From IMG/VR virus record IMGVR_UViG_3300027811_000039, positions 21,149-85,148 of that record: a stretch of 64,000 nt of DNA; one strand, given 5' to 3'. Positions 17,229 through 54,805 of the stretch are shown in pieces. Under the pieces are notes generated by a model. It worked only from the letters and a program-made list of their open reading frames with translations, made no database searches and had not been told where the DNA came from. This DNA comes from a virus. The position numbers and the translations under genes are program-made. How positions within the stretch are numbered: position 1 is the stretch's first letter; each line of letters starts with the position of its first letter.

Positions 17229-17243
17229 TTTTTCTCCCTTCTT

Positions 17244-19971: not shown

Positions 19972-20021
19972 TAAAATTCACCTCTAATCTAACAAAGGAA
20001 TTTAATTTCTAAAAACAAATT

Positions 20022-29343: not shown

Positions 29344-30990
29344 TTAAACGGCTGTTGACCTTGAAACTGTTCCTGAAACTTGAAATGAAGCAGTAAATGT
29401 TGCTGCACTATCAATGGCAACAGGCACCTCATAACTCGTTAAGAAACAAGTCCCACTATATTTCGCATACATACCATTAACTGGTGCTGTTGTCCCGGGA
29501 TAATACACGAAAGCAGCCGATGTTCCCAATATTCCAGATAGATATCTATTTGGTGTGGTAGAAAATATTCCCTCTATCGAAATAGTTGCATCCCTCAACC
29601 CCGCAACATATTCTTTCGAAGAACTGCAAAACACCGAAACCTCGACTGTATCTAATGTCCTCGGAAATGTTACACTCTTGATCCAACAATTTAAAAGTCT
29701 CTCGGTTCCACCAGAATCCGTAATGCTGAAACCAGAATTCTTCCCATGAACTGCATGGACTGGACTTGGGTAAGTCAGAAGTAGATCACTCAAACTTTCA
29801 GCAAAATTTAGATCAATATCTGCACCAGTTACACCATAGGCAGCACCCAATCCATTCAAATCACTTGAATATTGCCATGCATTCCAGAAATCATTTACAT
29901 AATTTCCAAACGCAAGATAATCAAATGATGGATAAACCCCAGCACCAAAATTAGCTGCCAACCATAACGGTGCAATTAATCCCACTCCACCTTTGACAGA
30001 ATGGACTAATTCATTAGGCACGGTTGCCATTGTGTCAATAGTATAATAGGCCGTATACAACATTACCTGTTTACCAGTTAATTGCCTGAACTTATTAACA
30101 AATGCTTCAATAAAATCATAACCCGAATCATTCGTAACTGCTGGATATATACTGCCAAATTGATTTTCAAAATCCAATACTGGCATTATATCTCCCCAAT
30201 CAGAACCACCTAATTCATTGTCAATAAACGTCTTAAATAATATTGCCTCTGCTTCCGCATCTGCTACAGAAGTCAACCATCTTAAATTTGCAACATCATA
30301 GTAATTCATTCCTTTGAACCAATAAAACCCTACTGCTATTCCTGCAGCTCTTGCAGCTGCAATATTAACAGCAAGCATTTGGGCATCCTGTGAATAATGG
30401 GATGGTGCTGCATCTGCCGTTACGACCCATGCACCATCTGCTGAATCTGCATAGGTTCCAGTACCGACACTATTGACATCAAAAATCGTTTCCCAAACAA
30501 CATCATCTGTACTATATTCAACGAGCAAATCATTGAATGTCCTACCTGTGACTTGTTTTAAAACGAAATATCTAATGTTGGTCGATGCAGTTAAATCAAC
30601 TTTTACCCATTGTGCCGATCCACTTCCAATGGTAACAGAAGTCGCAAGACTTCCATCTGTAAAATTTGCCAATGCCCCAGCCGTAGGTGCAATCGAAGAT
30701 GTTACAGTTTTTCCACCTGCTACCTCTGTCAAAGCAGTATTATAAACTTCTATTTCATTGAAAACATTATCTCCATTCACATCACTACCATTACAAGTAA
30801 CCCGAATGTACCTAGCTGTATGGAAATCAAAACCATTCCCACCAGCTTTCAACCATACAAATCTTACCCCTGCACCATACATAGTTGCCCAATTGATAGG
30901 ATATTGAGCACTTGCTACATCTGCACCCTGAACCAATCCAGCTTGATCCACCAAGCTGTACCATTGAAAATATCCCGCTGACTGAGTCAC
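29344..30990 (-). CDS. GH25 lysozyme with an inserted discoidin/F5-8-like domain, fused to a C-terminal tail-tube domain
   Basis: GADVASAQ, PVLDFE and WQYSS...G.DIDLN motifs. The last ~140 aa are near-identical to 31036-31449. Confidence 0.85.
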   Translation of the reverse strand: MTQSAGYFQWYSLVDQAGLVQGADVASAQYPINWATMYGAGVRFVWLKAGGNGFDFHTARYIRVTCNGSDVNGDNVFNEIEVYNTALTEVAGGKTVTSSIAPTAGALANFTDGSLATSVTIGSGSAQWVKVDLTASTNIRYFVLKQVTGRTFNDLLVEYSTDDVVWETIFDVNSVGTGTYADSADGAWVVTADAAPSHYSQDAQMLAVNIAAARAAGIAVGFYWFKGMNYYDVANLRWLTSVADAEAEAILFKTFIDNELGGSDWGDIMPVLDFENQFGSIYPAVTNDSGYDFIEAFVNKFRQLTGKQVMLYTAYYTIDTMATVPNELVHSVKGGVGLIAPLWLAANFGAGVYPSFDYLAFGNYVNDFWNAWQYSSDLNGLGAAYGVTGADIDLNFAESLSDLLLTYPSPVHAVHGKNSGFSITDSGGTERLLNCWIKSVTFPRTLDTVEVSVFCSSSKEYVAGLRDATISIEGIFSTTPNRYLSGILGTSAAFVYYPGTTAPVNGMYAKYSGTCFLTSYEVPVAIDSAATFTASFQVSGTVSRSTAV

Positions 30991-34459: not shown

Positions 34460-34714
34460 CTATTTAGCTGCCTTTCCTTTTGACTCCTTCTTTAAATCTT
34501 CAACATTTCCATCCGTTATGCCGAATAATTTTTCCCTTTTTGATTTAACATCCAATAACGAACCCCTATAAATGATTCGCCCTAGAATTAACGCCACCAT
34601 TCTTTGTTCATTAACATTATTGAATTGCTCAGTTGTATAAATCTCTCCCGCCTTTAATGGCAAATCATCAAATCTATATCCATTCCTCAAAACTAAATGA
34701 TATAGTTCACTCAT
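34460..34714 (-). CDS. Hypothetical protein in the head-neck module
   Basis: ATGA-type overlap with the upstream gene. Confidence 0.55.
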   Translation of the reverse strand: MSELYHLVLRNGYRFDDLPLKAGEIYTTEQFNNVNEQRMVALILGRIIYRGSLLDVKSKREKLFGITDGNVEDLKKESKGKAAK

Positions 34715-35670
34715 TTTTGTGGCCTTCCCTTCGGCTTAGAATAAACGTCTAATCTAGTTGGATTTCCAAGTCGCATAATATATTCAACATCGTGTAATGC
34801 TCCAAGAAGATTTTGCTCGGCTTGAAGTTGCTGATTAGCTTGTTCCTGCATCCCAATCCTTTGTCTTCTGGTATTTTCAACTCGCTCAATTAATTCTGTA
34901 CGTCTTGCTTCCAACTTTTGCATATACGCTGTCGCATCATCGTAACCATAAAGGAATGGACTTAGGAGGAGATCCGAAACAGGTGGTTTATAGAGTTTAA
35001 TGCCCTTTCCCCTAGCCCACCCAAGGAAGAACTCACAACTTGGTCTTTGGTGCTGGAACTCTTGATCCTGTGCCATATTGACACCATAAACCTGAATATC
35101 CTTGTAACCCATCTTGATCGCAAGGGCTATCATCCATGAAATAGAATTGGTGAAATATGATCTCTGTCTAACATCTGGTTGATCCAATGCCATTTCTTCA
35201 CCATATATATCAAACTCTTCCAGAACTTCCTGTAATGGATATTCAATCGAATTCGGAATGTTTGGATGTTTTCTCCACATGAGTACAGGACACTTTAAGA
35301 AACCAAGATTCCTAACTTGTTGTGCATCCCTAATTGTTGGTGGCTCATAACCATGCAATTGAAACCACGCTGTTGCTCTTAATGCAATCTTGGGCCTATC
35401 TAGATACAACTCATTCAATGCCCAAACATCAATACCTTTTGCATCAAGTGGTGCCCATTTCAAACTGTCAGGTGCAAATCCAAGAATCATAACACTATCG
35501 TTATATCTCTTGAATTCATAGATCTCCTCTTTTGAAACTGTAGCTTTCGATAAATCATAGAATTTAGGAATTGGTTTTTCTACTTCAACTGGTTGATCAT
35601 TTTCAATGATAGTCTCTCTTACCTCTTGATCCAACATCGTTAATTCTTCACTCATAAATTTAGTGGGCAT
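34711..35670 (-). CDS. Cst-II(GT42)/Maf/DUF115-like Rossmann-fold transferase candidate
   Basis: MILGFAPDSL...DVWALNELY and TNSISWMIALAIKMGYKDIQVYGVNM parallel Cst-II IIAGNGPSL...DVFRCNQFY and TSGVYMCAVAIALGYKEIYLSGIDF (recalled from memory). Confidence 0.55.
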   Translation of the reverse strand: MPTKFMSEELTMLDQEVRETIIENDQPVEVEKPIPKFYDLSKATVSKEEIYEFKRYNDSVMILGFAPDSLKWAPLDAKGIDVWALNELYLDRPKIALRATAWFQLHGYEPPTIRDAQQVRNLGFLKCPVLMWRKHPNIPNSIEYPLQEVLEEFDIYGEEMALDQPDVRQRSYFTNSISWMIALAIKMGYKDIQVYGVNMAQDQEFQHQRPSCEFFLGWARGKGIKLYKPPVSDLLLSPFLYGYDDATAYMQKLEARRTELIERVENTRRQRIGMQEQANQQLQAEQNLLGALHDVEYIMRLGNPTRLDVYSKPKGRPQK

Positions 35671-36174: not shown

Positions 36175-37149
36175 CTAAGTTATAGCTGCCGAGAAGAAGC
36201 AACCTAAATCAGCCCCAACAACTTTTAAGCTATATGCCGATTCTCCTTCAATCCGATTAGCAGCATTTTGTTCCATGCGGAAATTCTTGATCCTGACACC
36301 TTCTGCTCCTGAACCAAAAAGTCCAGACCATGTGAACAGATACCCAGCAGAAGGTTGATACAAGCCTGGTGCTGGTGCAGCATATCCAAGGAATGCATTT
36401 TTACCATACACAAAACTATATGATGCTGTAGCAGTCTCATTTGCAGTATTCCTAACTGCCCTTGGTACAAGCACTCTCTCCACATCGAACAAAACAGCCA
36501 GAATTTCTTCTGTGATAACTCCTTTTTGGGTATATTTAACACGATCTAAAATATCTGGATGATTTTTCAATGTTGTATAAACCTGTGGCCCGAGAACTAG
36601 GCAATTCGGACGATAACCAGTTTTTTGAGAAATACTATCCGCTTCGTTCGTAATATCCTCAATAGGTGTACTGACGATATTATCCCAAAGTGTGAAATCA
36701 ACACCTCCAACTAGATCTGTCCCAGTCGTAGCACCAGTCCAAAGTCCAGTAGTGAAGAAATGTGTGACCCAATCAAGTTCACGTTTGAGAAGAATTTGTT
36801 GAGTTACATAAACGGTGTGTGATCTCTCAAGTTGCAACGGTTGATCTGCATTAGCTCTTGTTTGGTCGTCAAGATCCGCATGGTATCCGATTACATCACA
36901 AGAGTAATTATCTGTGCTCAAACGATATCCACCACCAGCAGTTTCTGCCCCCGGTGCCCTCAATTTAGCTTCACTACGGAAGAAATCAGCTTGTGAGAAT
37001 ACGAAATACTTATCACTCTTATTGGTAACTGGAACAATCGGAAATACTTTATTCGCAATGAAGTTACGTTCTGTATCCTGAATATATGCAATTGAAATGT
37101 TAGTTAATGCACGGTCTACATGAACATCCGATAAGGTAGGATTCGGCAT
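36175..37149 (-). CDS. Major capsid protein (HK97 fold, capsid protein E-like)
   Basis: P..SDVHVD..LTNIS+AY.Q....IA..VFP.VPV...G..PN.+V+G.....L..HP.I. Confidence 0.9.
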   Translation of the reverse strand: MPNPTLSDVHVDRALTNISIAYIQDTERNFIANKVFPIVPVTNKSDKYFVFSQADFFRSEAKLRAPGAETAGGGYRLSTDNYSCDVIGYHADLDDQTRANADQPLQLERSHTVYVTQQILLKRELDWVTHFFTTGLWTGATTGTDLVGGVDFTLWDNIVSTPIEDITNEADSISQKTGYRPNCLVLGPQVYTTLKNHPDILDRVKYTQKGVITEEILAVLFDVERVLVPRAVRNTANETATASYSFVYGKNAFLGYAAPAPGLYQPSAGYLFTWSGLFGSGAEGVRIKNFRMEQNAANRIEGESAYSLKVVGADLGCFFSAAIT

Positions 37150-37302: not shown

Positions 37303-37689
37303 TTAGGTTGTCATACCAACTGCCGAGAAAGCAACAGTAGCAATTCCACTAGATGCAGAAGCAACAAGAACAGGCCCATACATTGATGCTTTTGCAGGAA
37401 TAGCAGCCGTACTATATGCCAATCCATTGTTTGCAATCCAGAAATTGCTACCCAAAGCCATTGCACTCCTACATGCAATCTTGGAAATACATCCGGGAAT
37501 CCAAATTTCACCTGCATCTCCGGTAATAGGATTATTCTGCAAAATACCAATAGGATAAATTGCGGTCGTTGTTGCCCCAATAGCAAAATAATCTGCTACT
37601 GTCGATGCCCTAACACCCTGATATTGTCGGTTTTGCATACTGCTAGAAGCAATGAGTGAGAAACTTAAATTTTTGATATCGTAAGCCAT
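37303..37689 (-). CDS. Head decoration / capsid cement protein
   Basis: G+LQN.P..G.A.E+...G.SK+ pattern, located between the scaffold and capsid genes. Confidence 0.7.
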   Translation of the reverse strand: MAYDIKNLSFSLIASSSMQNRQYQGVRASTVADYFAIGATTTAIYPIGILQNNPITGDAGEIWIPGCISKIACRSAMALGSNFWIANNGLAYSTAAIPAKASMYGPVLVASASSGIATVAFSAVGMTT

Positions 37690-38603
37690 TATTTACCGCT
37701 CCTTTCTTTGGTGTACTCATCATAGAGTTTAGGATTTTCCGCAAGAACCCGATCAACAGCCTGTGACATACTTTGTCCTTGACCTTTAGCAACATAACTT
37801 TTAGCCAATTCTTCAATCTTGGCCCAAGCACTATCACTAGTCCCAGTTGCCTCTGATCCGATTTCCTTAAACAAATCTGACTTTTCAATCTTGGCATTAG
37901 CATCTTTCAAAGCAGTTTCTAATGATAATCCATACTCTGCCGAAACTTCATATGCCTTTTTCAAAATGTCACCAACTACCATAGCAGTTCCAATATTCGG
38001 GTAACTAGCACCCTTCTCTTGGTACTCCTTGGTAATTCTGATTTCTCTTTCCGATTTCAGAACAGCTTCCAATTCATCAGCTTTCTTAATCGCAGATTCA
38101 TGTTCTTTCCAAAGCATCTGAACAAGTTCACGGGATTCTTCAGGAATAGCATCAAGATCCAATGACCCATCTTCTTTCTTCATCCTCTTTTTCTCCGCAA
38201 CAACAGGTGTTGGTTTAGGCATTTCTTTTCCTCCTTTTGGATTAGCTGGTTTTTCTATTTCCTCTTCTTCCATATCACCATAACCAGCCATGCTAATTAA
38301 TTTTTCCATGAAACTTTTCGGCATTTCTTCCTTATATGCCGACATTAATTTGAGTGCCCCTTTTGCAGCCTTACACGCTTTTTCACTCAACTTCATTTTT
38401 TTCATGATGTTTTCGATGCTCTCAGCATTCTCTAAATCAATGTCTAATTCATCAAGTGATTTCAAGACATCATCCAATTTGTCCAAGTTGTCTCCTCCTT
38501 TTTGTTTTAAGAGTAAGAATAACCGCTCATTTGCAGGTTTAGCTACCAAGGATATTTCTTCAACATTCAACCCTTTAAGCTCATTGATAAACAATTGTGC
38601 CAC
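37689..38603 (-). CDS. Scaffolding protein
   Basis: L.V.EISLV..PAN N-terminus and Lys/Glu-rich helical body. Confidence 0.65.
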   Translation of the reverse strand: MAQLFINELKGLNVEEISLVAKPANERLFLLLKQKGGDNLDKLDDVLKSLDELDIDLENAESIENIMKKMKLSEKACKAAKGALKLMSAYKEEMPKSFMEKLISMAGYGDMEEEEIEKPANPKGGKEMPKPTPVVAEKKRMKKEDGSLDLDAIPEESRELVQMLWKEHESAIKKADELEAVLKSEREIRITKEYQEKGASYPNIGTAMVVGDILKKAYEVSAEYGLSLETALKDANAKIEKSDLFKEIGSEATGTSDSAWAKIEELAKSYVAKGQGQSMSQAVDRVLAENPKLYDEYTKERSGK

Positions 38604-38609
38604 CCCCCC

Positions 38610-40073
38610 TTAGCTGACTGGCTTATCTACTGGTATCCTCCTAGAAAATCCACCAATTGAAAAACCATTGAACTTTTTTTCCTTGATCGAATCCCACATT
38701 TTGGCATCGTTGATCTTAACAGCCATTATCCAAGTGCCTTTTACGATATCTTGACCACCTAATTTAAAATCCAATGGTGCAAGATAACTTTCAACGACAT
38801 TTGCCTTGGCCTTGCCCTTGTGCGACTCTCCTACAACTCTGGAATCTTGCAAATAGATATGTGCAGTTTTTTCTATTTCCTCTGCACCTATTGTGTCATT
38901 CTGAGCATCGACACTTCCCGGTTCTAAAACTATGCCATACACAAGTTGCTTTTCTACATCAGCCTTGATTATATCTGCATAGATTTTTTCATCTTTTTCA
39001 TCACTAGGTTTTACTTTCTTCTTCGGCCTCTTCCAATCTGTAGAATCTATATGGACATCCCCTACGCTTGGCAACCCCTTATTAATTTCTTCAAGTTTAA
39101 TCTTGATTTGTTTAAGTTTTCTTCCAACCTCACCAGAATCATTAAACTTTCGGATTGCCATAGGGTGCGGTAAAACAAAATCAACATCTCCATCAAGAGC
39201 TTTTTTGGCCTTTTGCCCTAAAGCTACAATTACCTTTGGATTAGCTCTTTCTAATTCACCATCCAACCAATCTTTCCAATTACCAACTTCCACATCTGTT
39301 GGTTCCCTGACATTCCCCGATTTATCAACCAATAACATTGGTACAACATTAGTTAGAAATATATCATTACGGCCCAACCCTAATGGTTTGATATACATTT
39401 CATTAAAAGTTTCCCCACACGGCCCAACGAATGCTTCCCCTCGTAAATATTCAATCTTTCCCGGTGATGCTCCGACAAACGCTATTTCCGAATTTGCCCC
39501 ACCTGAACTCTTAACCATTGGAACTAATTCATCGCTTTTTTCTACTGGAGGAATTTCCTTTTTAAATGGACTGACCAATTTTTCATCTTCCCAAATCTTT
39601 CGCATTTTTGCATAGTATTTGTCAACATGATCTTTCATTCCCTGTATATCTTCTTTTGGAACATTTATTTGCGATGTTCCACCTTCTAGCATAGCCCCAT
39701 TTAAAATTGCTGCAGAAGTAAATATTGCTCTAGGTATCGCCATCAATTTTCCATCAATCACATTTGCAATTGGAAATTTATATCCACCAAAAGCTTCCTT
39801 GTTTTCATCATCAACCCATAAGAAACCTTGGCTAAATTTACCCCAATTTATATCTTCCTTATCCGTTCCCCTTGCCCACTCTCTGATATTTTTTTCCGCT
39901 TCTGATCCATCCCATTCCAATTCTCTATCAGCAATGGGCAAATCCTTGAACGGTGTTACTCCCTTTATGATTTCCTCTGGAACTGCTATTTCATGGATCT
40001 TGTCAAATGTTTCTTTTGGTATAAATTTTTTGAGAGTATCCAAGACTACATCTAAATACTCCTGAACTTGCAT
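38610..40073 (-). CDS. XkdF-like prohead protease-family protein with a central uracil-DNA-glycosylase-like domain
   Basis: C-terminal LVYG+VLEP..VD.Q.D...EEIEK.AH...H...VVESY.AP...GTW+M...W..+K...+NGFSIGG. Central FVG.SPG..E...G.AFVG..G...TNVV...P.VIVALG..A...HP. Confidence 0.8.
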   Translation of the reverse strand: MQVQEYLDVVLDTLKKFIPKETFDKIHEIAVPEEIIKGVTPFKDLPIADRELEWDGSEAEKNIREWARGTDKEDINWGKFSQGFLWVDDENKEAFGGYKFPIANVIDGKLMAIPRAIFTSAAILNGAMLEGGTSQINVPKEDIQGMKDHVDKYYAKMRKIWEDEKLVSPFKKEIPPVEKSDELVPMVKSSGGANSEIAFVGASPGKIEYLRGEAFVGPCGETFNEMYIKPLGLGRNDIFLTNVVPMLLVDKSGNVREPTDVEVGNWKDWLDGELERANPKVIVALGQKAKKALDGDVDFVLPHPMAIRKFNDSGEVGRKLKQIKIKLEEINKGLPSVGDVHIDSTDWKRPKKKVKPSDEKDEKIYADIIKADVEKQLVYGIVLEPGSVDAQNDTIGAEEIEKTAHIYLQDSRVVGESHKGKAKANVVESYLAPLDFKLGGQDIVKGTWIMAVKINDAKMWDSIKEKKFNGFSIGGFSRRIPVDKPVS

Positions 40074-40435: not shown

Positions 40436-40717
40436 TCATGCTTCTCTCTCCATTCTCTCCTTCTCTGCCCTTACCCTATTTGCCTCTCCTCCCCGCTTAT
40501 GTCTTTCCGATCTGTTATATTTCAAAATCGTAATAACTTCCTCATATAATGCAATATCAATTTCCTTCAAAAATTTCTGCAGATCTCTATGAACTGTACT
40601 TTTGCTTACTCCGAATTCTTCTGCAGTTACCCTAATTGTTGATTCATTTTCAACAATAAAATTTGCTTCCAATACTGCTCTCTGATGGATCAATTCTCGT
40701 AATGCTGAATTAATCAT
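40436..40717 (-). CDS. spoIIID: SpoIIID-like sporulation transcription factor
   Basis: T+R..A.EFGVSKSTVH+DL...L.EI...L..EV..IL.Y.+S.RH.RGGEA matches SpoIIID. Confidence 0.9.
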   Translation of the reverse strand: MINSALRELIHQRAVLEANFIVENESTIRVTAEEFGVSKSTVHRDLQKFLKEIDIALYEEVITILKYNRSERHKRGGEANRVRAEKERMEREA

Positions 40718-40761: not shown

Positions 40762-41688
40762 TTAAATGAAAACAAGTCCCATTGCACATCTGCAATGAGG
40801 GTGAAGCGTCGGGGTTAATGATATATAACTTTTTCCCGAAAGTAACGGTGTCCCAAAGCTTTCCTCCAACCCAACTATTTTTCCATTAAGACTATTACAC
40901 CACGCACATAAACGATCATCTGGTGTCGTAATCCATTTCCTCCTAGTAGTTGCGGTATCAAGTAATCCTTGTTCTACCGACTGTAACCATAATGACTGTT
41001 GCCCCATATTTGCTGCCGTGATAGTCTCTGTTCTTGCGATATTCCTTGACCTATAGATAAGCAAATCCCGAGCATATGCCCTAGTTCTTTGCTCAATCAC
41101 TTTATCTGAAAGCTTTTGAATAATTAATGTTCTTCTCAAATTATTTACTGCCCTTGCTTGCCTCTCAGTAAGTCCAACTATTTTACTGATCTCTTTTGCC
41201 GATTCATAAGGATGCAACCCCTCAACAAAAGCATCATTTATTATTGTTCTTACCGCTTTCCTAGTTTCTTCCGTAATCTCAACAATTAACTTTCCAGTAT
41301 GATCCTTGATATAATCCAACGACTTTGGATTCAAAGTGTTAAAGCTTGCATTCATTCTGATTCCTCTAGGTAAAAAGGGTATTGATTTTTCCCCTGCACT
41401 ATCAAATACCGCTTTGTAAATTAGTGAAATCTTAACCATTTCAGATTCAAAAATTCCCCAAGGTATGGATTCCATAACACCATTAATAGATACGATTTCT
41501 AGAGCACTTCTCATTTCATTGATATTGATATTTCCCTTAGTCCTCTCAACTGCTTGCATGAATGCTTCTACCATCTGTGGTTGATAACCATCAGCCACAC
41601 CATGTATCATGTTCCATTCTTTATCACCATAAGAACCCTTATATATAATCTTTATTTTTGGTTCCCTAAATCTAAACATGGCAATCAT
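40762..41688 (-). CDS. Phage minor head morphogenesis protein (MuF-like)
   Basis: IARTETI.A.N.G...KWITT.DDR.C..C..LNG...P.LHP.CRC. Confidence 0.9.
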   Translation of the reverse strand: MIAMFRFREPKIKIIYKGSYGDKEWNMIHGVADGYQPQMVEAFMQAVERTKGNININEMRSALEIVSINGVMESIPWGIFESEMVKISLIYKAVFDSAGEKSIPFLPRGIRMNASFNTLNPKSLDYIKDHTGKLIVEITEETRKAVRTIINDAFVEGLHPYESAKEISKIVGLTERQARAVNNLRRTLIIQKLSDKVIEQRTRAYARDLLIYRSRNIARTETITAANMGQQSLWLQSVEQGLLDTATTRRKWITTPDDRLCAWCNSLNGKIVGLEESFGTPLLSGKSYISLTPTLHPHCRCAMGLVFI

Positions 41689-43010
41689 TCCTTAACTGAA
41701 ACTGGAAGTCCTGCTGTTTTTCTCAAATAATCCTCTAGTTCATCATCTGGGAATAACGGTGCTCCTGCTCCTGCTAATCTTGAAATATAATTACCAAGTT
41801 CTTCCAGATCTGGACTTTCTATATCTCCATGCTCTAGGGTTGGTAACTTTTCAAGATTGAAACCATTAAGTGCTAACAACCTTGGGATTGCATAACGATT
41901 AAATGTCGCTGCAATTGAATCCAACCAAGTTCCCAATGCCGTACTAAATAATTTTGTCTTATCTGAACTTAATGCATATGACCCATTCGGTGTAGCAGTT
42001 CCCAATAATATGAAATCTGCCATAACTGTCATTGCTAATCTTTGGTCAAGCCTTGTTATGATTTGATTGGTATCAAAATTCCTTCTGCCACCACTCGTCA
42101 ATAACTCCAACCTAACCAATTGATTATTCTGTTCATCATAAATTGCTGGTAAAACTGCTCCCTCTTGTTCATCTCTCCTAATATTGGTCACAAGCTTTTT
42201 CATCGCATTATAAGCATCTTTTTCCCCTGCCGTAGCATTAACATCCGTCCATTCAACTGGCACATACACAACTGGATACCCAGCTAATTCCCTCTCGACC
42301 CCAATGGCCTCATAAGTCTCGATCCTTTTCTTGATGTACCATGTTCGATAAGCACATCTCAATATAGATCTACCTTCTGGATTATTTTTATGAATTCCAG
42401 TTCTGAACAATAATGCTTTTTCGATAGGAATTGTTCGATATTGATAATCTGGTGGTGGAAGCTGAATCATTGCTTGAATTCCTCCACCTTCATCAAACAC
42501 CCAACGCCACAAAGTTTCCTGTGCTCTTATCGGTATCTTCCTCCAACCAATTTTTCCATCAGTAAACCTACTATTCTTGGTCGGATCCCTACTCTCCCCA
42601 AGTCTCCTTTTATATACAATTTCATGGTAAGAGAATCCATAAATCAAAAAGGAAAGTATTTCAGATATGGTATCCTCCCATGTACTGGACATATCCACTA
42701 AGCACGATTCAACGAACTTACTCGCTTCTTCGTCTTTTGTATCTCCTCCCCCCGCTTGCACCCTCCACGGCACTTGCCTAATCAACATATCAATAACGAA
42801 TAAAATTGCACCGATAACACTATCATTTTCGGACATTTCCTTATAAATGCGAACCCTTGTATCAAAGCTAGAAAGTTGTTTTAATTGTTCTTCATAGACA
42901 TAACCTGAGTATTCAATTAACCCAGTACGCCCCAATTCTCTAGTTGCAATCTGAGGCGTTACTCCCTGCTTCTTTACTTTTACTTCCGAATCATTTGGTG
43001 GTTGTGCCAT
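41685..43010 (-). CDS. Portal protein (DUF935/Mu gp29-like)
   Basis: SF+.YG+S.HEIVY...W++..+R.QE...NPEG.S+LR..Y..W..K...E..G.ER...G.P, following terL. Confidence 0.9.
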   Translation of the reverse strand: MAQPPNDSEVKVKKQGVTPQIATRELGRTGLIEYSGYVYEEQLKQLSSFDTRVRIYKEMSENDSVIGAILFVIDMLIRQVPWRVQAGGGDTKDEEASKFVESCLVDMSSTWEDTISEILSFLIYGFSYHEIVYKRRLGESRDPTKNSRFTDGKIGWRKIPIRAQETLWRWVFDEGGGIQAMIQLPPPDYQYRTIPIEKALLFRTGIHKNNPEGRSILRCAYRTWYIKKRIETYEAIGVERELAGYPVVYVPVEWTDVNATAGEKDAYNAMKKLVTNIRRDEQEGAVLPAIYDEQNNQLVRLELLTSGGRRNFDTNQIITRLDQRLAMTVMADFILLGTATPNGSYALSSDKTKLFSTALGTWLDSIAATFNRYAIPRLLALNGFNLEKLPTLEHGDIESPDLEELGNYISRLAGAGAPLFPDDELEDYLRKTAGLPVSVKE

Positions 43011-44733: not shown

Positions 44734-45438
44734 TCAAATTAGGCATCTAAGTAATTCAAATCCCTCTGCTGAACTCATTCCCACTATTGACCCCATATTA
44801 CAGGCCATTAATTGAACTAATTCAGTCGATCTAGGATGCGGGAAATCTCTGATCTCCGTGTCATAACATTTCAACGCATTCACCTTTAATTCTGTGAATA
44901 ATCCAACATCCATAAAAACATTCGGGCTAAAACTCCCAAATGCCGAAAATGTCCATTCTGTACTCGATGGTATCGGGAACATATAAATAGCTGCAACCCT
45001 ATGTTTGCCCTGCATCGGCCTTGTTGCCGTAATTACTGCCCTATTTGTAATACAATGATCAATATTTAGATCCTTTTGAGAATGCGTGAATATGCAATCT
45101 GGTTTTATCTCTTCAATGATTTCCTCAATAGATTTAACTATGGTCAATAATGGAACAGTATCGAACTTATTGTCTGGATAATCAAAAAATCTCATATATT
45201 TCTTAGTTTCTACCTTTGGGATCCCCATCAATACAGACATCGCAGACCTTGATTTCTCTTTGACTTTTTCTTTCTCGAAATCTAATAACTTATCATTATC
45301 AGTCCTTGATGTTAATCCATAACTCATATACACAATATGGACGTTTTGTTCATCCATCCTCACCGATCTAGCTATAATTCCACCACATCCAAGCACTTCA
45401 TCATCTGGATGGGCAGCTATCACCATTATCTCAGGCAT
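44734..45438 (-). CDS. PIG-L/LmbE-family deacetylase
   Basis: AAHPDDEVLGCGG...D+N+DH. Confidence 0.9.
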   Translation of the reverse strand: MPEIMVIAAHPDDEVLGCGGIIARSVRMDEQNVHIVYMSYGLTSRTDNDKLLDFEKEKVKEKSRSAMSVLMGIPKVETKKYMRFFDYPDNKFDTVPLLTIVKSIEEIIEEIKPDCIFTHSQKDLNIDHCITNRAVITATRPMQGKHRVAAIYMFPIPSSTEWTFSAFGSFSPNVFMDVGLFTELKVNALKCYDTEIRDFPHPRSTELVQLMACNMGSIVGMSSAEGFELLRCLI

Positions 45439-46127
45439 TACATCAAATCCCCCATCAATAATTTCGCTAGTTTAAGATCATGTGCCGTATTGATATCCAT
45501 TGCTCTTTCCTCACTCACATAGTAAGGCATTATTTTTGGCATATAAAAATCTTCATACTGCATAAAACTCTTAGTCCTAACGAAAATAATTGAACCATCA
45601 TGGATATATGCCGATTCCAATTCAGTATGTTGAGTATCAATATCATCTGGAAACATCGGTTCCACTAGGCCAGTTTCCTTATTCACCCTAAGCGAATGCT
45701 TGGGTGGATGCTTCAATTTACTCACACTCATTACCCCATTTATCCCTGTATGCTTTTCCATCAATGCTGACGCTGTTCTTAAATCATTAATGGTTCTGAG
45801 TGGTGATGTTGGGATAATTAACGCTATATTATCGAAATGATTTTCTTCCGCACAATATATCTCGGCAAGATATTTTACCAATGTCCTAAGTTTGCAATGA
45901 TCACCACTGAGATTGGGTGGCCTCAAATGCAGGGCCACTTTATATTTTGATGCGATATCTAAAAATGATCTTTCATCACTCGTCACAACAATTTCAGAAA
46001 AAACTCCACTTGCTACCGATATTTCTATTGCGTGTTCCAATAAAGATTTCCCATTAATCATTTGGATATTTTTCTTTAATAATCTCCTTGATCCACCTCT
46101 TGCTGGGATTATAGCTAATGTTCCCAT
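45438..46127 (-). CDS. Acylneuraminate cytidylyltransferase (NeuA/PseF/SpsF family)
   Basis: AIIPARGGSRRL..KNI..+NGK.L...PTSPLR...DI.T..D. Confidence 0.93.
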   Translation of the reverse strand: MGTLAIIPARGGSRRLLKKNIQMINGKSLLEHAIEISVASGVFSEIVVTSDERSFLDIASKYKVALHLRPPNLSGDHCKLRTLVKYLAEIYCAEENHFDNIALIIPTSPLRTINDLRTASALMEKHTGINGVMSVSKLKHPPKHSLRVNKETGLVEPMFPDDIDTQHTELESAYIHDGSIIFVRTKSFMQYEDFYMPKIMPYYVSEERAMDINTAHDLKLAKLLMGDLM

Positions 46128-46146
46128 CCTTTTCCCCCCGCTTCAC

Positions 46147-46851
46147 CTACACCAACATAGCCACCAAATTCCATGTTGCTTCTTTATTTTTTTCTGGTGT
46201 GATAATTTGAGATTCTTTATACTCTAACAACTCTATCTCAAATCCAGATTCAGCAAAAATACTACTAAGATGTTCCTTCGTGCTAAAATGTACTGCTCCA
46301 CAACCTGAAAATTTTCCCGCATTGAACATGAATGTAAATGGATCACCCGCATTATCCTCAGTTACTCTCCCAACCCTTTCACCATGTTCCCATGCAAACC
46401 AATCAATGCCAACAAACTTTCCTGCTGGTTTTAACTTTTCTGCTATAAATGCCAAAGAATCCAAAATGCTCATTGTCGTATTATGTGTCAAGGAACTTCT
46501 ATCAATCACAAGATCAAATTTTTCATCGAATGGAATTATTTTAGTAAAATCAGCATTGACAACCTTATCTGCTATTTCTGGATATTTATCACGAATCAAC
46601 TTAACGGCTGTCGGACTACCTTCAATTGCATAATATTGAACACCAATGGAAAGGAAATAAGGTATATTTGCACCAATTCCCGGCCCCAACTCTAAGACCT
46701 TATCACCCTCCACCAAATTAGCATATCGTTTTACATATTTGATCAAATCAGTCCAAGGCCACAATGAATGGCTCTTTCCCACTAGATATCTCTCTTCCCA
46801 CTCTTTTGCTATCATCATTCCACCACCATATAACTCATAGTGGGACACCAT
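46147..46851 (-). CDS. Class I SAM-dependent methyltransferase (start probably near 46815)
   Basis: KVLELGPGIG...YAIEGS...FDLVIDR.SL.H. Confidence 0.85.
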   Translation of the reverse strand: MVSHYELYGGGMMIAKEWEERYLVGKSHSLWPWTDLIKYVKRYANLVEGDKVLELGPGIGANIPYFLSIGVQYYAIEGSPTAVKLIRDKYPEIADKVVNADFTKIIPFDEKFDLVIDRSSLTHNTTMSILDSLAFIAEKLKPAGKFVGIDWFAWEHGERVGRVTEDNAGDPFTFMFNAGKFSGCGAVHFSTKEHLSSIFAESGFEIELLEYKESQIITPEKNKEATWNLVAMLV

Positions 46852-47498
46852 TCAAATCTCTGTAACCGAATATTTTTTAGTCCTAACGTTTCCCTAATTG
46901 CTAATGTTTCACCGGGCCAATTTTCATTATTTGCCTCGTCAAAAGCTATCACCGAACCCCTGACTATTCTTTCTTTGCATAATTCTAAGCACACCCTTGT
47001 TGGCTCATATATATCAAAATCAAAATATGCTAGAGCAACAATTGTTTCTGGATGTTTACGAAAATAATCTGGCAAGCTAAAAAGCACATTCCCTTTCACC
47101 AACTCATGTTTAGATATGTGGCTAATAGGACTTGCCTTTTCTTGTTCCACCAATATTTTTTCTAGATATTCTTGGTAGTTTTTAGTAACTCCCATATCTC
47201 CAATTTTTGCATCCCCATCATATTCAGACACTTGTGGGAATCCCTCGAAAGTATCAAAACCAACAATCTTTCTTGTATAATTAAACGGTTCAAACATCCC
47301 TCTTAGGCATTCAAATATAGCCATATCTTGACCCCATCTAACTCCAAACTCAAAGATATTACCATGAACATTTATGATCTTCCTATATAATTCATAAAGG
47401 AATATAACTCTGGTTAATGGCTGTCTCTTGATAAATAAATTAAGATTAGATAACATTTCATGCTCAGGTATCGGACAATCCACAAACATACTTATCAT
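46815..47498 (-). CDS. TylF/MycF-family sugar O-methyltransferase
   Basis: G.IFEFGV..G...GFDTFEGFP...ALAY.D.D.YEPT...G.+IAFDE. Confidence 0.85.
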   Translation of the reverse strand: MISMFVDCPIPEHEMLSNLNLFIKRQPLTRVIFLYELYRKIINVHGNIFEFGVRWGQDMAIFECLRGMFEPFNYTRKIVGFDTFEGFPQVSEYDGDAKIGDMGVTKNYQEYLEKILVEQEKASPISHISKHELVKGNVLFSLPDYFRKHPETIVALAYFDFDIYEPTRVCLELCKERIVRGSVIAFDEANNENWPGETLAIRETLGLKNIRLQRFEWCPTMSYMVVE

Positions 47499-48241
47499 TT
47501 AACTACCCCATCCAAAGTTATTTTTTTAACATTACCGCTCATGATTATATCCAAAGAATTCGGCCCCTCGTTGAATAAAAGGTCAATTATGCCCATAAAA
47601 GGAATGAACTCCCCATGCAATTGCCGATATATCGGGTGGATATATTCCTGAAAATAAGGTTGGATATTATTTACCCTAAACGATTCCCTATTTGCATAAT
47701 TCTGACCTTGCCCACCAAAGATATAGATATCAGCTTCGAGTGTCTTGCACATATCTAAAACAAGATCATTCTTGACACCCTCAAAGCTATAATTAACCGC
47801 ATAGTCAACTTCTGTCTTAATACCTAATATCTTCAAATACCAATCAAACATATGGTTGTTTAAATCAATCAGATATTTCCAATCTCGTCTATAAACATCT
47901 TTAAAAAATTCTGCATATTCATTAAAATATTTAGCTTTTTTATAAGCTAAGTAGATCGAAGTCCAATTCTTATCTCTCCATCTGGTGCTGTTATTTATCT
48001 CGATCTCAGCTATGGTTTTATTACGGTGATCTTTCTTTAATACAGGAACAGTCAACCACATATAACCAGAATGTGTCTTTATCTTGTTCCTATTCATCCA
48101 ATCCTTATTGCAATATTGAACTTGATCAAAATGGATATATTTATCAGCCAATGCAACCTTGTGAAACAACCCCAACCAAGGTACATAGCTAGTTTGATGT
48201 GCTGTTAATACCATCAATTTATTCGGACTTAAAACAGGCAT
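47495..48241 (-). CDS. WbqC-family protein
   Basis: HQ..Y+PWLG.F.K...D.VQY....W.NRN+IKT...WLT+PV...Y.Q..GEF+P.+.I+DLLFN.G. Confidence 0.9.
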   Translation of the reverse strand: MPVLSPNKLMVLTAHQTSYVPWLGLFHKVALADKYIHFDQVQYCNKDWMNRNKIKTHSGYMWLTVPVLKKDHRNKTIAEIEINNSTRWRDKNWTSIYLAYKKAKYFNEYAEFFKDVYRRDWKYLIDLNNHMFDWYLKILGIKTEVDYAVNYSFEGVKNDLVLDMCKTLEADIYIFGGQGQNYANRESFRVNNIQPYFQEYIHPIYRQLHGEFIPFMGIIDLLFNEGPNSLDIIMSGNVKKITLDGVVK

Positions 48242-49194
48242 TCCTTCACCACCATTATTATAAATTCCACCTCTTCATCGGTGAGATTCGGATAAATCGG
48301 TAATGATACTAGACTTCTAGTAAGTTCTAATGCATTCGGGAAATATTCCTTTATGCCCAATAACTCCGATTCCACAATCGGTATAATCGCCCTAATGCCA
48401 TGCAATGCCAATACCTTAACAAGTACCCTCGCCTTACTAGTTATCAATATAGCCCTATACCTGACATCCTCTATATTTTCCTTCTTACTCCACAACATAG
48501 GCAACCCAGCCATAACATATTTGCTGAATATTTCTTCCCTACGTTCAATGAACCTTCCCAACTTAGCTAATTGAACCCTGCCAATCGCTGCTTGTAAATC
48601 AGTCATTTGAAAATTAAATCTTGGCTTTAGGTCATCCCTCATATCAAATTCTCTGAAATCCCTTATTTCATCTATTTGATCTCTTGACCACGATACAACT
48701 GCCCCACCCTGTCCACCACTAGTAATAATCTTTGTTGCCGAAAATGAGAATACCCCATAATCTCCAATTGTCCCAACGAATCTGTCATTAACCTTCGCAC
48801 CCAATGCCTGTGCTGCATCTTCAATGAACGGTGTTTTCATACTCTGAATATAATTAGGGAATCCAAACATATGAGTAACGATATTCAAATCAATTGCATC
48901 CACATCCTTAGGACACGGAACACAATTTGCCATAATTATGGCATTTCTCACGGATGAACAAGTATAAATCGGATATGATACCCTCTCTATTCCTAGTTGC
49001 CTTATCGCTAAATATAAAGCTGCAGTTCCACTACTAACGGCTACTGCATGACCATCTGGAATTCCAAGATACCTGCACAATTCATTTTCAAATCCCTCAA
49101 CCTCTTTGCCTTGTCCAACCCATCCAGATTCAATAACCCTATTTGCAGCCCTCATTTCATCCGTGCCCATAGTTGGGCAATTATGAGCTATCAT
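48229..49194 (-). CDS. DegT/DnrJ/EryC1/StrS PLP aminotransferase
   Basis: AVSSGTAAL...IEDAAQA.G...FSFSATK.IT.G..GG. Confidence 0.9.
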   Translation of the reverse strand: MIAHNCPTMGTDEMRAANRVIESGWVGQGKEVEGFENELCRYLGIPDGHAVAVSSGTAALYLAIRQLGIERVSYPIYTCSSVRNAIIMANCVPCPKDVDAIDLNIVTHMFGFPNYIQSMKTPFIEDAAQALGAKVNDRFVGTIGDYGVFSFSATKIITSGGQGGAVVSWSRDQIDEIRDFREFDMRDDLKPRFNFQMTDLQAAIGRVQLAKLGRFIERREEIFSKYVMAGLPMLWSKKENIEDVRYRAILITSKARVLVKVLALHGIRAIIPIVESELLGIKEYFPNALELTRSLVSLPIYPNLTDEEVEFIIMVVKECLF

Positions 49195-49640
49195 GGCCTA
49201 ATATAATATCCTGCTCTGATATTCATCGGATTCCCCCAAACCAAAGAATAAGGCGGGATCTTCCCCGGCCCAACCATTGTTCCAGCAACAATAACCGAAT
49301 GATGCCCTATAGTAGTTCCACCCTTTACAACTGAATGTGAACCAATGAAAACATTGTTCCCGATCCAAATCCCTTTTCGTTCAATATCTTCTGAGAATCC
49401 AAGGCATTTTTTATGGGAATCTGCTGCATTGATAGCAACAAATGAAGCAATATCACAATCATTTTGGATCACAACATTCACACCTTTGGCATTTATTTCA
49501 GAAAACGCCCCAATGTAAACATTATCCCCAATCACAGGACTTCCCTTAACGATCACCATCGGATGGAATCTATTTATATCCAACCCCAATAATTCAATGA
49601 TTATCTTTTTCATTCTCGCTTTTAAGGATATCTTTATCAT
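49191..49640 (-). CDS. Hexapeptide-repeat (left-handed beta-helix) acyltransferase
   Basis: IGDNVYIGA...IG.NVFIG..SV+..G..IG..S+I.AG. Confidence 0.85.
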   Translation of the reverse strand: MIKISLKARMKKIIIELLGLDINRFHPMVIVKGSPVIGDNVYIGAFSEINAKGVNVVIQNDCDIASFVAINAADSHKKCLGFSEDIERKGIWIGNNVFIGSHSVVKGGTTIGHHSVIVAGTMVGPGKIPPYSLVWGNPMNIRAGYYIRP

Positions 49641-50634
49641 TCAACTTTTCCCCTTTTCCAATATCCCTAGAAGCAATCATGCCTAAGAATAGATCAATAT
49701 TTATTGGTGCCAACCCATCACTCGGACGCATCATGCCTAAATTTTTATCCGTAAATAGATCCCCTGCTTTTATATCTAATATTGCTGTCAAACTTCTTCT
49801 AGCTATCTTCCTCATGGCCTCTTCTTTTTTAGTCGGCCTCAACCCACTAGAACCAAGCATTTTGTCTGCTTTGTGAATTGCCTCAACCCAATCTTTCAGA
49901 TCTTGGGGATTCTTGCTGAATTTATGATCTGGCCCAATATCACTATTGGATAGAGTAAAATGTGTCTCAAATACTCTTGCCCCGAAACCCAACGCCAACA
50001 CCGCAGCAATATGTCCTGTTGTATGATCCGAATAACCAAGCAACATATTCGGTAACACCTTTGAAATCTTATCCAACTTTTTCATATTCACTTCATCTGG
50101 CATTGTTGGATATAAAGATGTGCAATGCAGGATAATAAGAGGATAATCATCATCATTCCCCTTTATCACATTAACTGCTTTCTCGATCTCTTCTTGATGT
50201 GCCATCCCGCACCCTAGAATGATAGGTAATTTTGTTGCCGAATATTTCCTAAGCAATGGTAAATTATTCAGATCATCCGAACCAACTTTTATTGCCTTGA
50301 TACCCAAATCTAAAAGCAATTCTAAATCCGAATAGTTTTGTGGCGTTGATAAAAACGTGATACTCAACTGTTCTGTCCACCTTTTTATCTGTCTCCATTC
50401 ATCAACTTCCAACTCACAAGCCTTAAATGTTTTATATAACTCTGCATTAGGATTACAGAATTCATCAGCCTTGAAGGTCTGGAACTTGATCGCATCAACA
50501 CCCGCTCTTTTAGCTGCCCCAACCATCTCCATTGCTGTTTTCAGATTACCATTATGATTAATCCCAACCTCAGCTATAGTAAATGGTCTATGATATCTAC
50601 TTATCGTCCTGCCCCTAATCTGGATTTCCCTCAT
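49594..50634 (-). CDS. N-acetylneuraminate-synthase family (NeuB/PseI/SpsE) with SAF domain, copy 2
   Basis: IAEVG+NHNG...DAIKFQTF...KVGS.D..N..L...LHC.S.YPT...GYSDHT.G...E.HFTL...GPDH. Confidence 0.93.
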   Translation of the reverse strand: MREIQIRGRTISRYHRPFTIAEVGINHNGNLKTAMEMVGAAKRAGVDAIKFQTFKADEFCNPNAELYKTFKACELEVDEWRQIKRWTEQLSITFLSTPQNYSDLELLLDLGIKAIKVGSDDLNNLPLLRKYSATKLPIILGCGMAHQEEIEKAVNVIKGNDDDYPLIILHCTSLYPTMPDEVNMKKLDKISKVLPNMLLGYSDHTTGHIAAVLALGFGARVFETHFTLSNSDIGPDHKFSKNPQDLKDWVEAIHKADKMLGSSGLRPTKKEEAMRKIARRSLTAILDIKAGDLFTDKNLGMMRPSDGLAPINIDLFLGMIASRDIGKGEKLNDKDILKSENEKDNH

Positions 50635-51710
50635 ACAAAACTAGTCCAATCATCCCATGTTATAACTTCATTCTTGGCAATATCCCTATTCACTCTCTTA
50701 CCGATCATTTGACCCATATAAAGAGGTGACACCCCAGTTCCCGGCCTCTTTGCACATAACATATCTTTGGTGATCACTTCACCCTCCGATATATTACAAT
50801 CTGCAACGATACTCGTTAAATACAAACATTTCATGGATAAATCTTCGATTGAAGGTTTTAATGCTTTTTCACCCATCACCAACTCAGCCTGTCTAATGTT
50901 CTTTACCCACTTCCTAAACTCAATCGGATCTAGTGCTTTGCTGTGATGATGCCCAACTGTATCCCTATTCATTGTCATCCTTTTTTCCATCAATTCTGCA
51001 CCCAACGCAACTGCCATTACATCGACTTTTGCATCTCTTGAATCTGCAGAATATCCAACTGGAATCCCTAACATCTCTTTTAAATATGGGATGCTGTTTA
51101 GATTTATTTTCTCTACCGAACTCGCATGGCTGCAATAAACCAACATGACCTCTGTTGCTCCATGCTTTTCAAGGAACTCCAATATCTGAACAACCTCACC
51201 CATGATTGCTGGCCCCAAATCAATCTGAATCGGCTTGCCTGTCTTTGCGACTGCTTCAAGTAATGGGTAATTCCTAAGATCCCATGAACCTATTTTATAA
51301 GCAGAAACATTAGCGTCTTCTGCCCATTGAACACTTCGCAACGAATCCACCGACAAATAAAAAGTTATCCCGATACTTTTTGCATATCTGGACAACTCTA
51401 TCAATTCCAATGGGCTAAATTGATGTTTCTTTAACATTTCAAACATATTTTCTTCTTGAATCCCACTAGAAGTCTCATATCTATATTTTACCGATTTATC
51501 CGACATAAAACCTTCACAATCAATAGTCTGAAACTTTACAGCATTTGCTTCTGCAACTTTTGCCTCATAGATCAATTCCTTTGCTGTCTCTAGACATCCA
51601 CAAGCCGTCACTCCTGTCTCAACAACAATATAAATTGGGTTCCCTTTTCCTATTTCATTTCCCCCAATATTAAAATGCGACCTGAAATTACTTCTCAGCT
51701 TCATTTTCAT
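50631..51710 (-). CDS. N-acetylneuraminate-synthase family with SAF domain, divergent copy 1
   Basis: AVKFQT...YKIGS.D..NYPL...GYS.D...EKR.T....G.HH...KRPG.G+.P. Several canonical NeuB residues differ (NHNG is TACG, SDH is SAD). Confidence 0.85.
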   Translation of the reverse strand: MKMKLRSNFRSHFNIGGNEIGKGNPIYIVVETGVTACGCLETAKELIYEAKVAEANAVKFQTIDCEGFMSDKSVKYRYETSSGIQEENMFEMLKKHQFSPLELIELSRYAKSIGITFYLSVDSLRSVQWAEDANVSAYKIGSWDLRNYPLLEAVAKTGKPIQIDLGPAIMGEVVQILEFLEKHGATEVMLVYCSHASSVEKINLNSIPYLKEMLGIPVGYSADSRDAKVDVMAVALGAELMEKRMTMNRDTVGHHHSKALDPIEFRKWVKNIRQAELVMGEKALKPSIEDLSMKCLYLTSIVADCNISEGEVITKDMLCAKRPGTGVSPLYMGQMIGKRVNRDIAKNEVITWDDWTSFV

Positions 51711-52222
51711 TTTACCCCCAACTTCAATTCCGCAAGTTTATCAATTGTTCTCTTCTCTAATCTGCTAACATAAGACCTCGAAATACCTATTAACTCTGCA
51801 ATTCTCTCTTGCTTTAATTCATAGTAAATTGCATAGGTAAAAATATCCCTTTGCCTCTGATTCAAAGAATTCAACACACCTCTAATTGCAATTATGTCCA
51901 GAACATTGTCATATTCAAGATGTTTTGAATCTGAAATTGATTCATTTAGATATTCTTTCAACTCTCTAGAAACATTCTTTCTTCTTAATGCCATTTTTAT
52001 CTCATTTTCCATACACTTAACTGCATATGTCGAAAACTTAGTTCCTTTATCTGGATTAAATGTTATTCCTGCTTTACATAAAGCATATGAAAACATAGAA
52101 AAAATTTCATCATAGTTATATGGGTACTCTATAGTACATTTATTTGACCACTTGTTAGCCATATATCTCGCCAGATTTAAGTTATCTTCCACCAATCCCC
52201 TTTGCTCTTCATTTAATTTCAT
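51707..52222 (-). CDS. Sigma-70 family factor, SigK-like region 4
   Basis: FNPDKGTKFSTYAVKCMENEI and IAELIGISRSYVSRLEKR. Confidence 0.85.
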   Translation of the reverse strand: MKLNEEQRGLVEDNLNLARYMANKWSNKCTIEYPYNYDEIFSMFSYALCKAGITFNPDKGTKFSTYAVKCMENEIKMALRRKNVSRELKEYLNESISDSKHLEYDNVLDIIAIRGVLNSLNQRQRDIFTYAIYYELKQERIAELIGISRSYVSRLEKRTIDKLAELKLGVK

Positions 52223-52253
52223 TCGCTTTACCTCCCACCAAAGAGTAAAGCCA

Positions 52254-52844
52254 TCAAGAAACGTGTTCTATTTCACTCGACTTCCTATTGAATTTCGCAA
52301 GTTTGTCAATGATTCTTTTTTCCAATCTACTAATATACGATTGCGATATTTTCAATTTGTCTGCTATGACTTTTTGCGATTCTTTATGGAAATAACGCAT
52401 AGTTATGATTTTCAATTCACGTTCTTTCAATATCTTTATCGCATCTTTAGCACACATTAAATCTAGTATCGCATCATATTGCAAATGATCATTATTGCTA
52501 ATGAACTCCTCTAACTCAACCGTATTCCCATCCGAATCCTCTGACATAATTCCATTTAGATATAGATCTGGCCCATTTCTCAACTGATTACCTTTTTTCC
52601 TGAAAGCCATTTTTATCTCATTCTCCATACATCTAGCAGCATAAGTTGCGAATTTAGCACCAGCTAAATTATCTGGATCAAAACTTCTTGCAGCTTTACA
52701 TAATGCAAATGAGAACATCGAAAAAATATCATCATGATCGAAATTCTGGACTCCACATTTCACCCATTTATGTGCCATATATCTAGCCAAATTTATATTG
52801 TCCTCAACTAATTTCCTTTGTTCTTCATTCATAATCATTTCCAT
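52254..52844 (-). CDS. Sigma-70 family factor, SigE-like region 4
   Basis: KFATYAARCMENEI and SQK.IAD.L.ISQSYISRLEKRII. Confidence 0.88.
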   Translation of the reverse strand: MEMIMNEEQRKLVEDNINLARYMAHKWVKCGVQNFDHDDIFSMFSFALCKAARSFDPDNLAGAKFATYAARCMENEIKMAFRKKGNQLRNGPDLYLNGIMSEDSDGNTVELEEFISNNDHLQYDAILDLMCAKDAIKILKERELKIITMRYFHKESQKVIADKLKISQSYISRLEKRIIDKLAKFNRKSSEIEHVS

Positions 52845-52889
52845 TTGCCTTCCCCCTCACAAGAAAACAAAAAAACGACTTTCGCCGTT

Positions 52890-53951: not shown

Positions 53952-53973
53952 AGTTCCTCTACCTCCTAACATC

Positions 53974-54498: not shown

Positions 54499-54503
54499 GC
54501 AGT

Positions 54504-54776
54504 TTATTGGAATTGCATTATTCGATATTTCCTCTCAGCAGATACCACATATGTCCCATCCTCAGTTTTCTCGACTACCATTACATATTCTGGTGGACAT
54601 TGGCCCTGCTCTATTTCCTCAAATAAATCTGAAATAGCGATATATTCCATTGTATCTTTATGGAACATCATTTCTGCTCTATATATAATCATTCTCCCTG
54701 TGATTGCCATAACCAACTCTGGCGATTCTAAAATATCTGATCTCGGAATATCAAATTGTCCCAACCTCAAATTCAA
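54504..54776 (-). CDS. Hypothetical protein
   Basis: 90-aa ORF with TTG start, immediately downstream of the repeat array. Confidence 0.55.
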   Translation of the reverse strand: MNLRLGQFDIPRSDILESPELVMAITGRMIIYRAEMMFHKDTMEYIAISDLFEEIEQGQCPPEYVMVVEKTEDGTYVVSAERKYRIMQFQ

Positions 54777-54805
54777 GGTTTATTCCCACTTTCCAATTTG
54801 ATTTT

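Follow-up and report, generated by a model that had tools for sequence, protein, structure and literature searches.

The presence of a uracil-DNA-glycosylase (UDG)-like domain inside a phage head protein of the XkdF type raises the question of what such a domain does there. The question was addressed in a window of 64,000 nucleotides (positions 21,149 to 85,148 of IMG/VR virus record IMGVR_UViG_3300027811_000039). The source record is 86.7 kb long and rated 99% complete, and no second UDG was found in it. The 487-aa ORF starts with an ATG at 40073, downstream of a strong ribosome binding site. In the order terminase, portal, MuF, SpoIIID-like gene, UDG-XkdF gene, probable scaffold, small protein and major capsid protein, the gene occupies the protease slot of the head module, and the order portal, MuF, this gene, scaffold and capsid is also seen in relatives. 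The genes concerned are:

41685-43010, minus strand: portal gene (PF06074).
40762-41688, minus strand: MuF gene (PF04233).
40436-40717, minus strand: SpoIIID homologue, within the head module.
38610-40073, minus strand: UDG-XkdF gene, whole ORF of 487 aa, comprising leader, head module, UDG-fold domain and XkdF protease.
37689-38603, minus strand: probable scaffold gene, 304 aa, the next gene after UDG-XkdF, with an N-terminal EISLV..PAN strand and rich in the Lys motif described below.
36175-37149, minus strand: major capsid protein gene (phrog_1005, E 3e-91), downstream of the UDG-XkdF gene.

Several features of the wider genome were noted in passing. The SpoIIID homologue is found in the same place in three close relatives and, together with two sigma factors at 51707-52844, points to a spore-forming member of the Bacillota as host. 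In the close relatives L086:17-926 and P0003 the portal gene leads directly to SpoIIID without a MuF gene, so MuF appears to be dispensable or mobile in this lineage. Between the terminase genes (44734-56254, minus strand) lies a nonulosonic-acid-type sugar pathway with PseB-like, two DegT-like, two NeuB-like, cytidylyltransferase, WbqC, TylF and PIG-L genes, and a weak match to CST-I sialyltransferase was found at 34711-35670. At 29344-30990 (minus strand) a lysozyme-like domain is fused to a tail-tube paralogue, and two more tube-like genes adjoin it. By appearance, genome positions 1-20000 (locus L094, outside the window) encode a replication initiator, a RecT and YqaJ pair, a tyrosine recombinase, a MazF-like protein and ParA, and no DNA polymerase, which suggests a temperate or plasmid-like phage that uses host replication.

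Within the ORF, Pfam placed UDG (PF03167) at residues 191-308 (65.2 bits against a cut-off of 24.3, E 8.8e-18) and XkdF (PF14550) at residues 368-480 (105.9 bits against a cut-off of 24). The chain was divided as follows:

39963..40073, minus strand: leader, residues 1-37, ending at candidate cut site IIK/G (Lys37).
39537..39962, minus strand: unnamed mobile head module, residues 38-179, the N-terminal domain of a preliminary description of this DNA.
39534..39545, minus strand: candidate cut site VEK/S (Lys179), just before the UDG domain; the Lys is kept and the next residue varies in close homologs.
39078..39524, minus strand: UDG-fold domain, residues 184-332, family-4-derived and Fe-S-less, from Pfam, AlphaFold2 model and alignment.
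39459-39473, minus strand: GASPG motif, at the motif A position.
39429-39431, minus strand: Phe215 of FVG, a pocket residue.
39348-39350, minus strand: Asn242, a pocket residue.
39156-39170, minus strand: PHPMA, motif B, containing His303.
39117-39134, minus strand: GEVGRK helix, nearly invariant, at the C-terminal end of the UDG domain.
39075..39086, minus strand: candidate cut site INK/G (Lys332), just after the UDG domain; kept in P0001-P0007.
38610..38972, minus strand: XkdF-type prohead protease domain (PF14550), residues 368-487, starting with candidate self-cleavage site IIK/A (Lys370).

The preliminary description had divided the protein into an N-terminal domain, a UDG core and an XkdF domain. 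All three are real, the first of them a separate unit with a model pLDDT of 86, and a fourth part, the conserved 37-aa leader, had been missed. The UDG core was correctly placed at 39150-39495, since GASPG, Phe215 of FVG, Asn242 and PHPMA all map there, inside a slightly larger full domain (about 39078-39524). Replacement of GE(A/G)PG by GASPG and retention of FVG, N and HP could each be located in the ORF, and the reported lack of Fe-S cysteines was confirmed, all four family-4 positions being missing by comparison with seven true family-4 proteins.

A structure search, proposed there as a check, bore out the UDG assignment. The AlphaFold2 model of residues 180-335 (pLDDT 95.6, pTM 0.90) has a UDG fold, with UdgX (6ail) as best match (Z 17.4, rmsd 2.4, 150 residues aligned), Z 17.2 to family-4 1l9g and Z 15.2 to family-5 2d3y; the top 13 structure rows were all UDG-fold, and the first non-UDG row had a Z of 6.7. 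Glu208, Phe215, Asn242 and His303 correspond to E47, F54, N80 and H155 of the Tth family-4 enzyme, so that four of the six residues lining its uracil pocket are retained. Ala202 and Ser203 stand in place of Tth E41 and G42, and Val255 is in register with N89, the water-positioning Asn of motif 3, the adjacent Asn254 not being conserved. In Tth UDGa, loss of the His reduces k2 by more than three orders of magnitude, E41Q lowers efficiency about 900-fold and E41A-G42D about 560-fold (PMC5387724). The domain also has a four-residue insertion at the UdgX loop position, a deletion of about 20 residues (a hairpin) before motif B, and a family-specific Arg211 and GEVxRK motif. Its scores against family-4 TIGR00758 (66.2 bits) and UdgX TIGR03914 (66.4 bits) fall below the respective cut-offs of 125.3 and 189.95. 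Judged by alignment and model, it is a member of the UDG superfamily but not of family 4. Its dN/dS of 0.06-0.13 is like that of the protease; the domain is genuine, conserved and maintained by selection.

A profile search of 1.8 billion representatives (E < 1e-30; clusters at 50% identity) found the domain in at least 185 phage clusters, and all counts out of 150 given here refer to the best 150 of these. His303 is present in 149/150, as is Glu or Asp at 208, followed by Arg318 and Lys319 (148/150), Glu315 (143/150) and Arg211 (141/150). The uracil-specific positions vary far more: position 215 is Phe in 58/150 and Leu in 68/150, Asn242 is kept in 74/150, and the full E-F-N-H pocket set occurs in just 21/150, the query included. 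At the second position of motif A, Ala is found in 101/150 and Glu is not among the common residues. Ser203, which occupies the position of the UNG catalytic Asp, is Ser in 104/150, and one may speculate that it takes part in activity. Since the uracil-specific residues drift throughout the family, selection would seem to keep something other than strict uracil recognition. In a tree all 150 rows formed one group apart from seven family-4 rows, a split that was well supported, although the 148 columns gave weak inner support and the in-group had been selected by profile. The branch closest to family 4 is that of P0147, a ligase-bearing member in which Arg211 and the RK motif are missing and which is a possible intermediate form. 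Another relative, P0020, has rubrerythrin and rubredoxin-like domains ahead of UDG-XkdF.

The tie between this domain and the protease is nearly constant. XkdF lies downstream in the same chain in 136/150 representatives; several of the non-fused ones end at contig ends, and in two complete unfused members that were checked the UDG gene stands immediately before a solo XkdF gene. Stand-alone members were found neither below 267 aa by a word search of limited sensitivity nor among the best 150 profile matches. No cultured phage was found to carry a UDG domain of this family, the only matches being partial ones (27-37%) to ordinary UDGs.

The closest UDG domains (61-64% identity) are in proteins of 950-1,630 aa that bear a ligase. 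Such long relatives add an ATP-dependent ligase, a LigD-like 3'-phosphoesterase and a nucleotidyltransferase, together with variable methylase, 2H, GNAT or lactamase-fold domains, giving up to eight domain parts per chain compared with four in the query. The ligase motif KxDG/KxNG is intact in 38 of 44 rows (the remainder are four truncated or partial rows and two with Arg), and the GS..DxD motif of the nucleotidyltransferase is kept. The phosphoesterase-like domain gave weak LigD PE matches (Pfam E 0.01-0.03; PDB E 0.017-0.38), all to PE-type entries, and its His, His, Asp and Arg are invariant; at the C-terminus of P0149 it is interrupted by the apparent start of an intein. The full pocket is found in 17 of 46 members with the repair kit and 4 of 104 without it (raw p 4e-7), an association that is not significant after kinship correction (4 independent pairs). 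No ligase was found in the query genome, and Nfo-type AP endonuclease is absent from seven complete relatives.

The leader profile matches 67 of the best 150 representatives, and the leader is common to the long polyproteins and to split forms without XkdF. Its dN/dS is 0.04-0.15 in the closest pairs, and it may be a packaging or assembly tag. Residues 38-179 had no match in Pfam or PHROG and no fold match in the PDB (best Z 3.3; Foldseek E 2.9), a result that falls short of proving a new fold. Their Atlas structure neighbours (TM 0.7-0.8) are inside HK97-type and Mu-type protease proteins; the module occurs in 11/150 family members, on either side of the UDG domain, and recurs on several other kinds of prohead protease. 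Because the leader is common with the long forms and the tree groups the query with them, the query is most likely a reduced descendant of a long form that gained module 38-179.

In the protease, K370, H418 and S472 are invariant in 40 homologs, and the catalytic His418 and Ser472 are intact in the query. The strand that closes the protease, EISLV..PAN, is not in the query ORF; at 68 loci the next gene begins with it, in all three frames. In the query the stop codon is in frame with the scaffold start (TAA, six G, GTG; 38604-38612), an arrangement that can be put down to chance because the 68 loci split 15/28/25 over the frames, and read-through into the scaffold gene was rejected. A predicted complex between the XkdF domain and the first 48 residues of the next gene scored 0.73, with 0.00 for the best of three controls, on a scale where the mark was reached by 58 of 80 solved pairs and 2 of 110 mismatched pairs and where two pieces of one divided fold may succeed through resemblance to protease folds already solved. 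Runs agreed in at least 93% of contacts, partner pLDDT was at least 63, and partner residues 16-18 lay against Ser472. The N-terminus of the next gene is thus predicted by the model to complete the XkdF protease fold.

A motif of the form [VIL]xK[AS] was enriched on both sides of the UDG domain, with 45 occurrences upstream against 11.4±3.1 in shuffles (3.9-fold) and 59 downstream against 10.5±3.1 (5.6-fold). Among other head proteins, at loci that are partly redundant, enrichment was 5.4-fold in scaffolds, 2.6-fold in MuF, 0.8-fold in capsid and 0.9-fold in portal, and the Arg version of the motif, used as a control, was not enriched (0.6-1.4-fold). From the 2.6-fold enrichment in MuF (loci L001-L089) it follows that MuF may also be processed at maturation. 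In the query each of the four domain borders carries the Lys motif (Lys37, 179, 332 and 370); one additional motif, VDK/S at 251, is inside the UDG domain and is not conserved. The HK97 protease cuts at K103/S104 (PMC10275583). We infer that Lys37, 179, 332 and 370 are candidate sites of cleavage by the protease.

The reading we favour, tentatively, is that the UDG domain is a packaged cargo, freed at maturation, that would recognise uracil-type lesions in the injected DNA and either slowly excise or hold the base. On the evidence of the sequence, packaging and release of the domain are likely; its delivery to the cell is slightly favoured, and recognition of a damaged base in DNA has about even chances. 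The chain would be made from the protease slot of the head module, where it is encoded with its protease residues intact. According to the model, the XkdF domain takes its missing strand from the N-terminus of the scaffold, so that the chain would be docked on the scaffold and carried whole into the prohead. The protease would cut after Lys in [VIL]xK/[ASG], which would break up the scaffold and separate leader, head module, UDG domain and protease from one another, and the folded 17-kDa UDG domain would be retained in the head and enter the cell with the DNA. There it may flip out and bind, and probably slowly excise, uracil-type damaged pyrimidines in phage DNA. In the ancestral long form the glycosylase would have acted first in a packaged kit that also held 3'-phosphoesterase, nucleotidyltransferase and ligase, of which the query phage would have kept the lesion-recognising step alone, leaving the rest of the repair to the host.

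The kept fold and pocket, the purifying selection, the constant tie to a protease, the ligase-bearing nearest relatives, the Lys motif and the protease-scaffold model all speak for the cargo reading. Against it, the equivalents of E41 and N89 are lost and the uracil-specific residues drift family-wide; hosts already possess UDGs, which makes the benefit less evident, the kit comes without an AP endonuclease and the query genome is without a ligase; and the upstream cut site is imperfect in close homologs, with one motif lying inside the domain. Part of the interpretation in the preliminary description agrees with this reading. Release at head maturation, suggested there, gains sequence support from the flanking Lys motif, the intact protease residues and the scaffold docking, and a role on DNA lesions would be in keeping with the retained pocket residues and with the ligase, phosphoesterase and nucleotidyltransferase partners of the nearest relatives; the suggestion tying the domain to candidate DNA-modification genes (56.5-58.8 kb) failed, as described below. 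A bolder form of the cargo reading, which we consider unlikely, would make the family a distinct phage-head-specific UDG branch with its own active-site design (Ser at the UNG catalytic-Asp position with the near-invariant His, Glu/Asp, Arg and Arg-Lys), acting on bases that are damaged or marked by the host and forming the conserved core of a virion-packaged, protease-released base-repair kit injected against particle deamination or host defences.

Of the alternatives, the one that survives best, with a modest chance of being right, keeps packaging and delivery and has the domain act as a non-catalytic clamp on abasic sites, uracil, ends or nicks, shielding the genome from host repair or defence nucleases and resembling UdgX in effect, not in chemistry. 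Loss of E41, N89 and the Fe-S cluster would suit such a clamp, as would the drift of F215 and N242 while PHP, Arg211, Arg318 and Lys319 stay near-invariant, and there are precedents both in the catalytically dead UDG domains on N4-like phage polymerases (PMC13697223) and in tight binding without excision (PMC4787834). However, the catalytic His and the pocket acid, which the dead N4-like domains lost, are the best-kept polar residues here, the UdgX His is absent (Val255), and with a net charge of -1 (family median +1.5) the domain as a whole is not basic.

Unlikely is a role confined to the prohead, in which the domain would be a head-assembly module that binds DNA, scaffold or portal, or times the protease, and is never injected. 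UDG is the one constant XkdF partner while ligase, phosphoesterase and others come and go, and the new invariant residues that replace the deleted hairpin could form a protein-binding surface. Such a role is hard to reconcile with the 190-aa domain that separates UDG from XkdF in 39 members, with the separate genes seen in some, with the cut-site motifs that part the UDG domain from the protease, and with the fact that most XkdF proteins bear other cargo or none.

We regard as improbable a weapon against the uracil-containing DNA of another phage in the same cell, or a decoy that titrates out a UDG inhibitor: polyvalent proteins have been proposed as conflict effectors (PMC5512222) and the pocket variation (Glu or Asp at 208) could reflect changing targets, but the enzymes joined to it ancestrally heal and seal and are not nucleases. 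Still more improbable is that the domain serves as reader or proofreader of a base modified by this phage itself, using genes that lie upstream of the small terminase:

56508-58831, minus strand: TAGT glycosyltransferase (PF20691, 64 bits), radical SAM and ParB-like genes, the ParB match being weak.

These genes are a possible DNA-modification set, and their presence would favour such a reader. The link of the UDG family to them was nevertheless rejected on co-occurrence, TAGT being found in 0/7 near-complete and 1/24 domain-bearing relatives and thymidylate synthase in 0/24. A uracil- or hmU-substituted genome was likewise rejected, no thymidylate synthase, dCMP deaminase, dUTPase or own polymerase having been seen in the query genome. 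That the domain is a decaying relic digested along with the scaffold, as loss of the partner repair domains in the query lineage might suggest, is largely refuted by the selection on it (dN/dS 0.06-0.13) and by residues that are near-invariant over 150 clusters.

The general design of a cargo-bearing head protease has already been published in the form of polyvalent proteins (Iyer et al. 2017, PMC5512222), in which unrelated domains are joined on a virion protein that is encoded in the head module and ends in an assemblin-like peptidase, and which were proposed to be processed and injected. The query likewise has disparate domains in one chain and a virion-gene location with a C-terminal peptidase. 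The main text of that paper describes no UDG, XkdF, glycosylase or DNA-ligase cargo, no cut-site motif and no scaffold-completed protease. Other cargoes on XkdF found in the database search were 2H, Nudix, ParB, Dam and pyrophosphatase, and UDG cargo on a phage head protein was not found in the searched literature, which comprised papers open without a subscription.

With family-4 UDG (UDGa; Tth 1ui0, T. maritima 1l9g, TIGR00758) the query shares the fold, the E47/F54/N80/H155 pocket and the His-Pro of motif B. It differs from family 4 in being without the Fe-S cluster and its N-terminal segment, in having GASPG for GE(A/G)PG and no N89, in a change of the C-terminal 'EDL' to 'RKL', and in belonging to a family of which no stand-alone member was found. 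UdgX of M. smegmatis (6ail; TIGR03914) is the top structural match and has an insertion in the same loop, whereas the query has no KRRIH, Val at the His109 position and no Fe-S cluster. UDG domains also occur on phage family-A polymerases, where those of SPO1 and SP-15/phiLo are active and N4-like ones inactive (PMC13697223). These are similar in being part of a multi-domain protein and in a repair link to ligase and X-family polymerase (PMC13697223; Z 13.4 to 9qhs), but they belong to the replication fork of phages with modified thymine, while the domain described here is on a head protein of phages without thymidylate synthase.

The protease half shares with HK97 gp4 and XkdF proteases (PF14550, PF04586) the His/Ser pair, the protease slot and putative cut sites of Lys followed by a small residue, as at HK97 K103/S104; it differs in that, at all loci where the final strand of the fold was located, the scaffold gene encodes it. 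In XkdF of B. subtilis PBSX the closing strand is at the protein's own N-terminus. To the published design the query adds a separate branch of the UDG superfamily and a predicted rule of maturation that can be tested. If the cargo reading is true, widespread uncultured phages would carry DNA repair in the particle, acting before any phage gene expression; the literature searched held no account of this in any phage. Being small (150 aa), free of Fe-S and variable in its pocket, the UDG could serve as a reagent, with the reservation that the enzyme may be dead. For XkdF-type heads two rules are predicted, from the model and from the motif respectively, namely that the scaffold completes the protease and that cutting occurs at [VIL]xK/[AS], and both make the 2017 polyvalent-protein idea testable through the expression of four genes.
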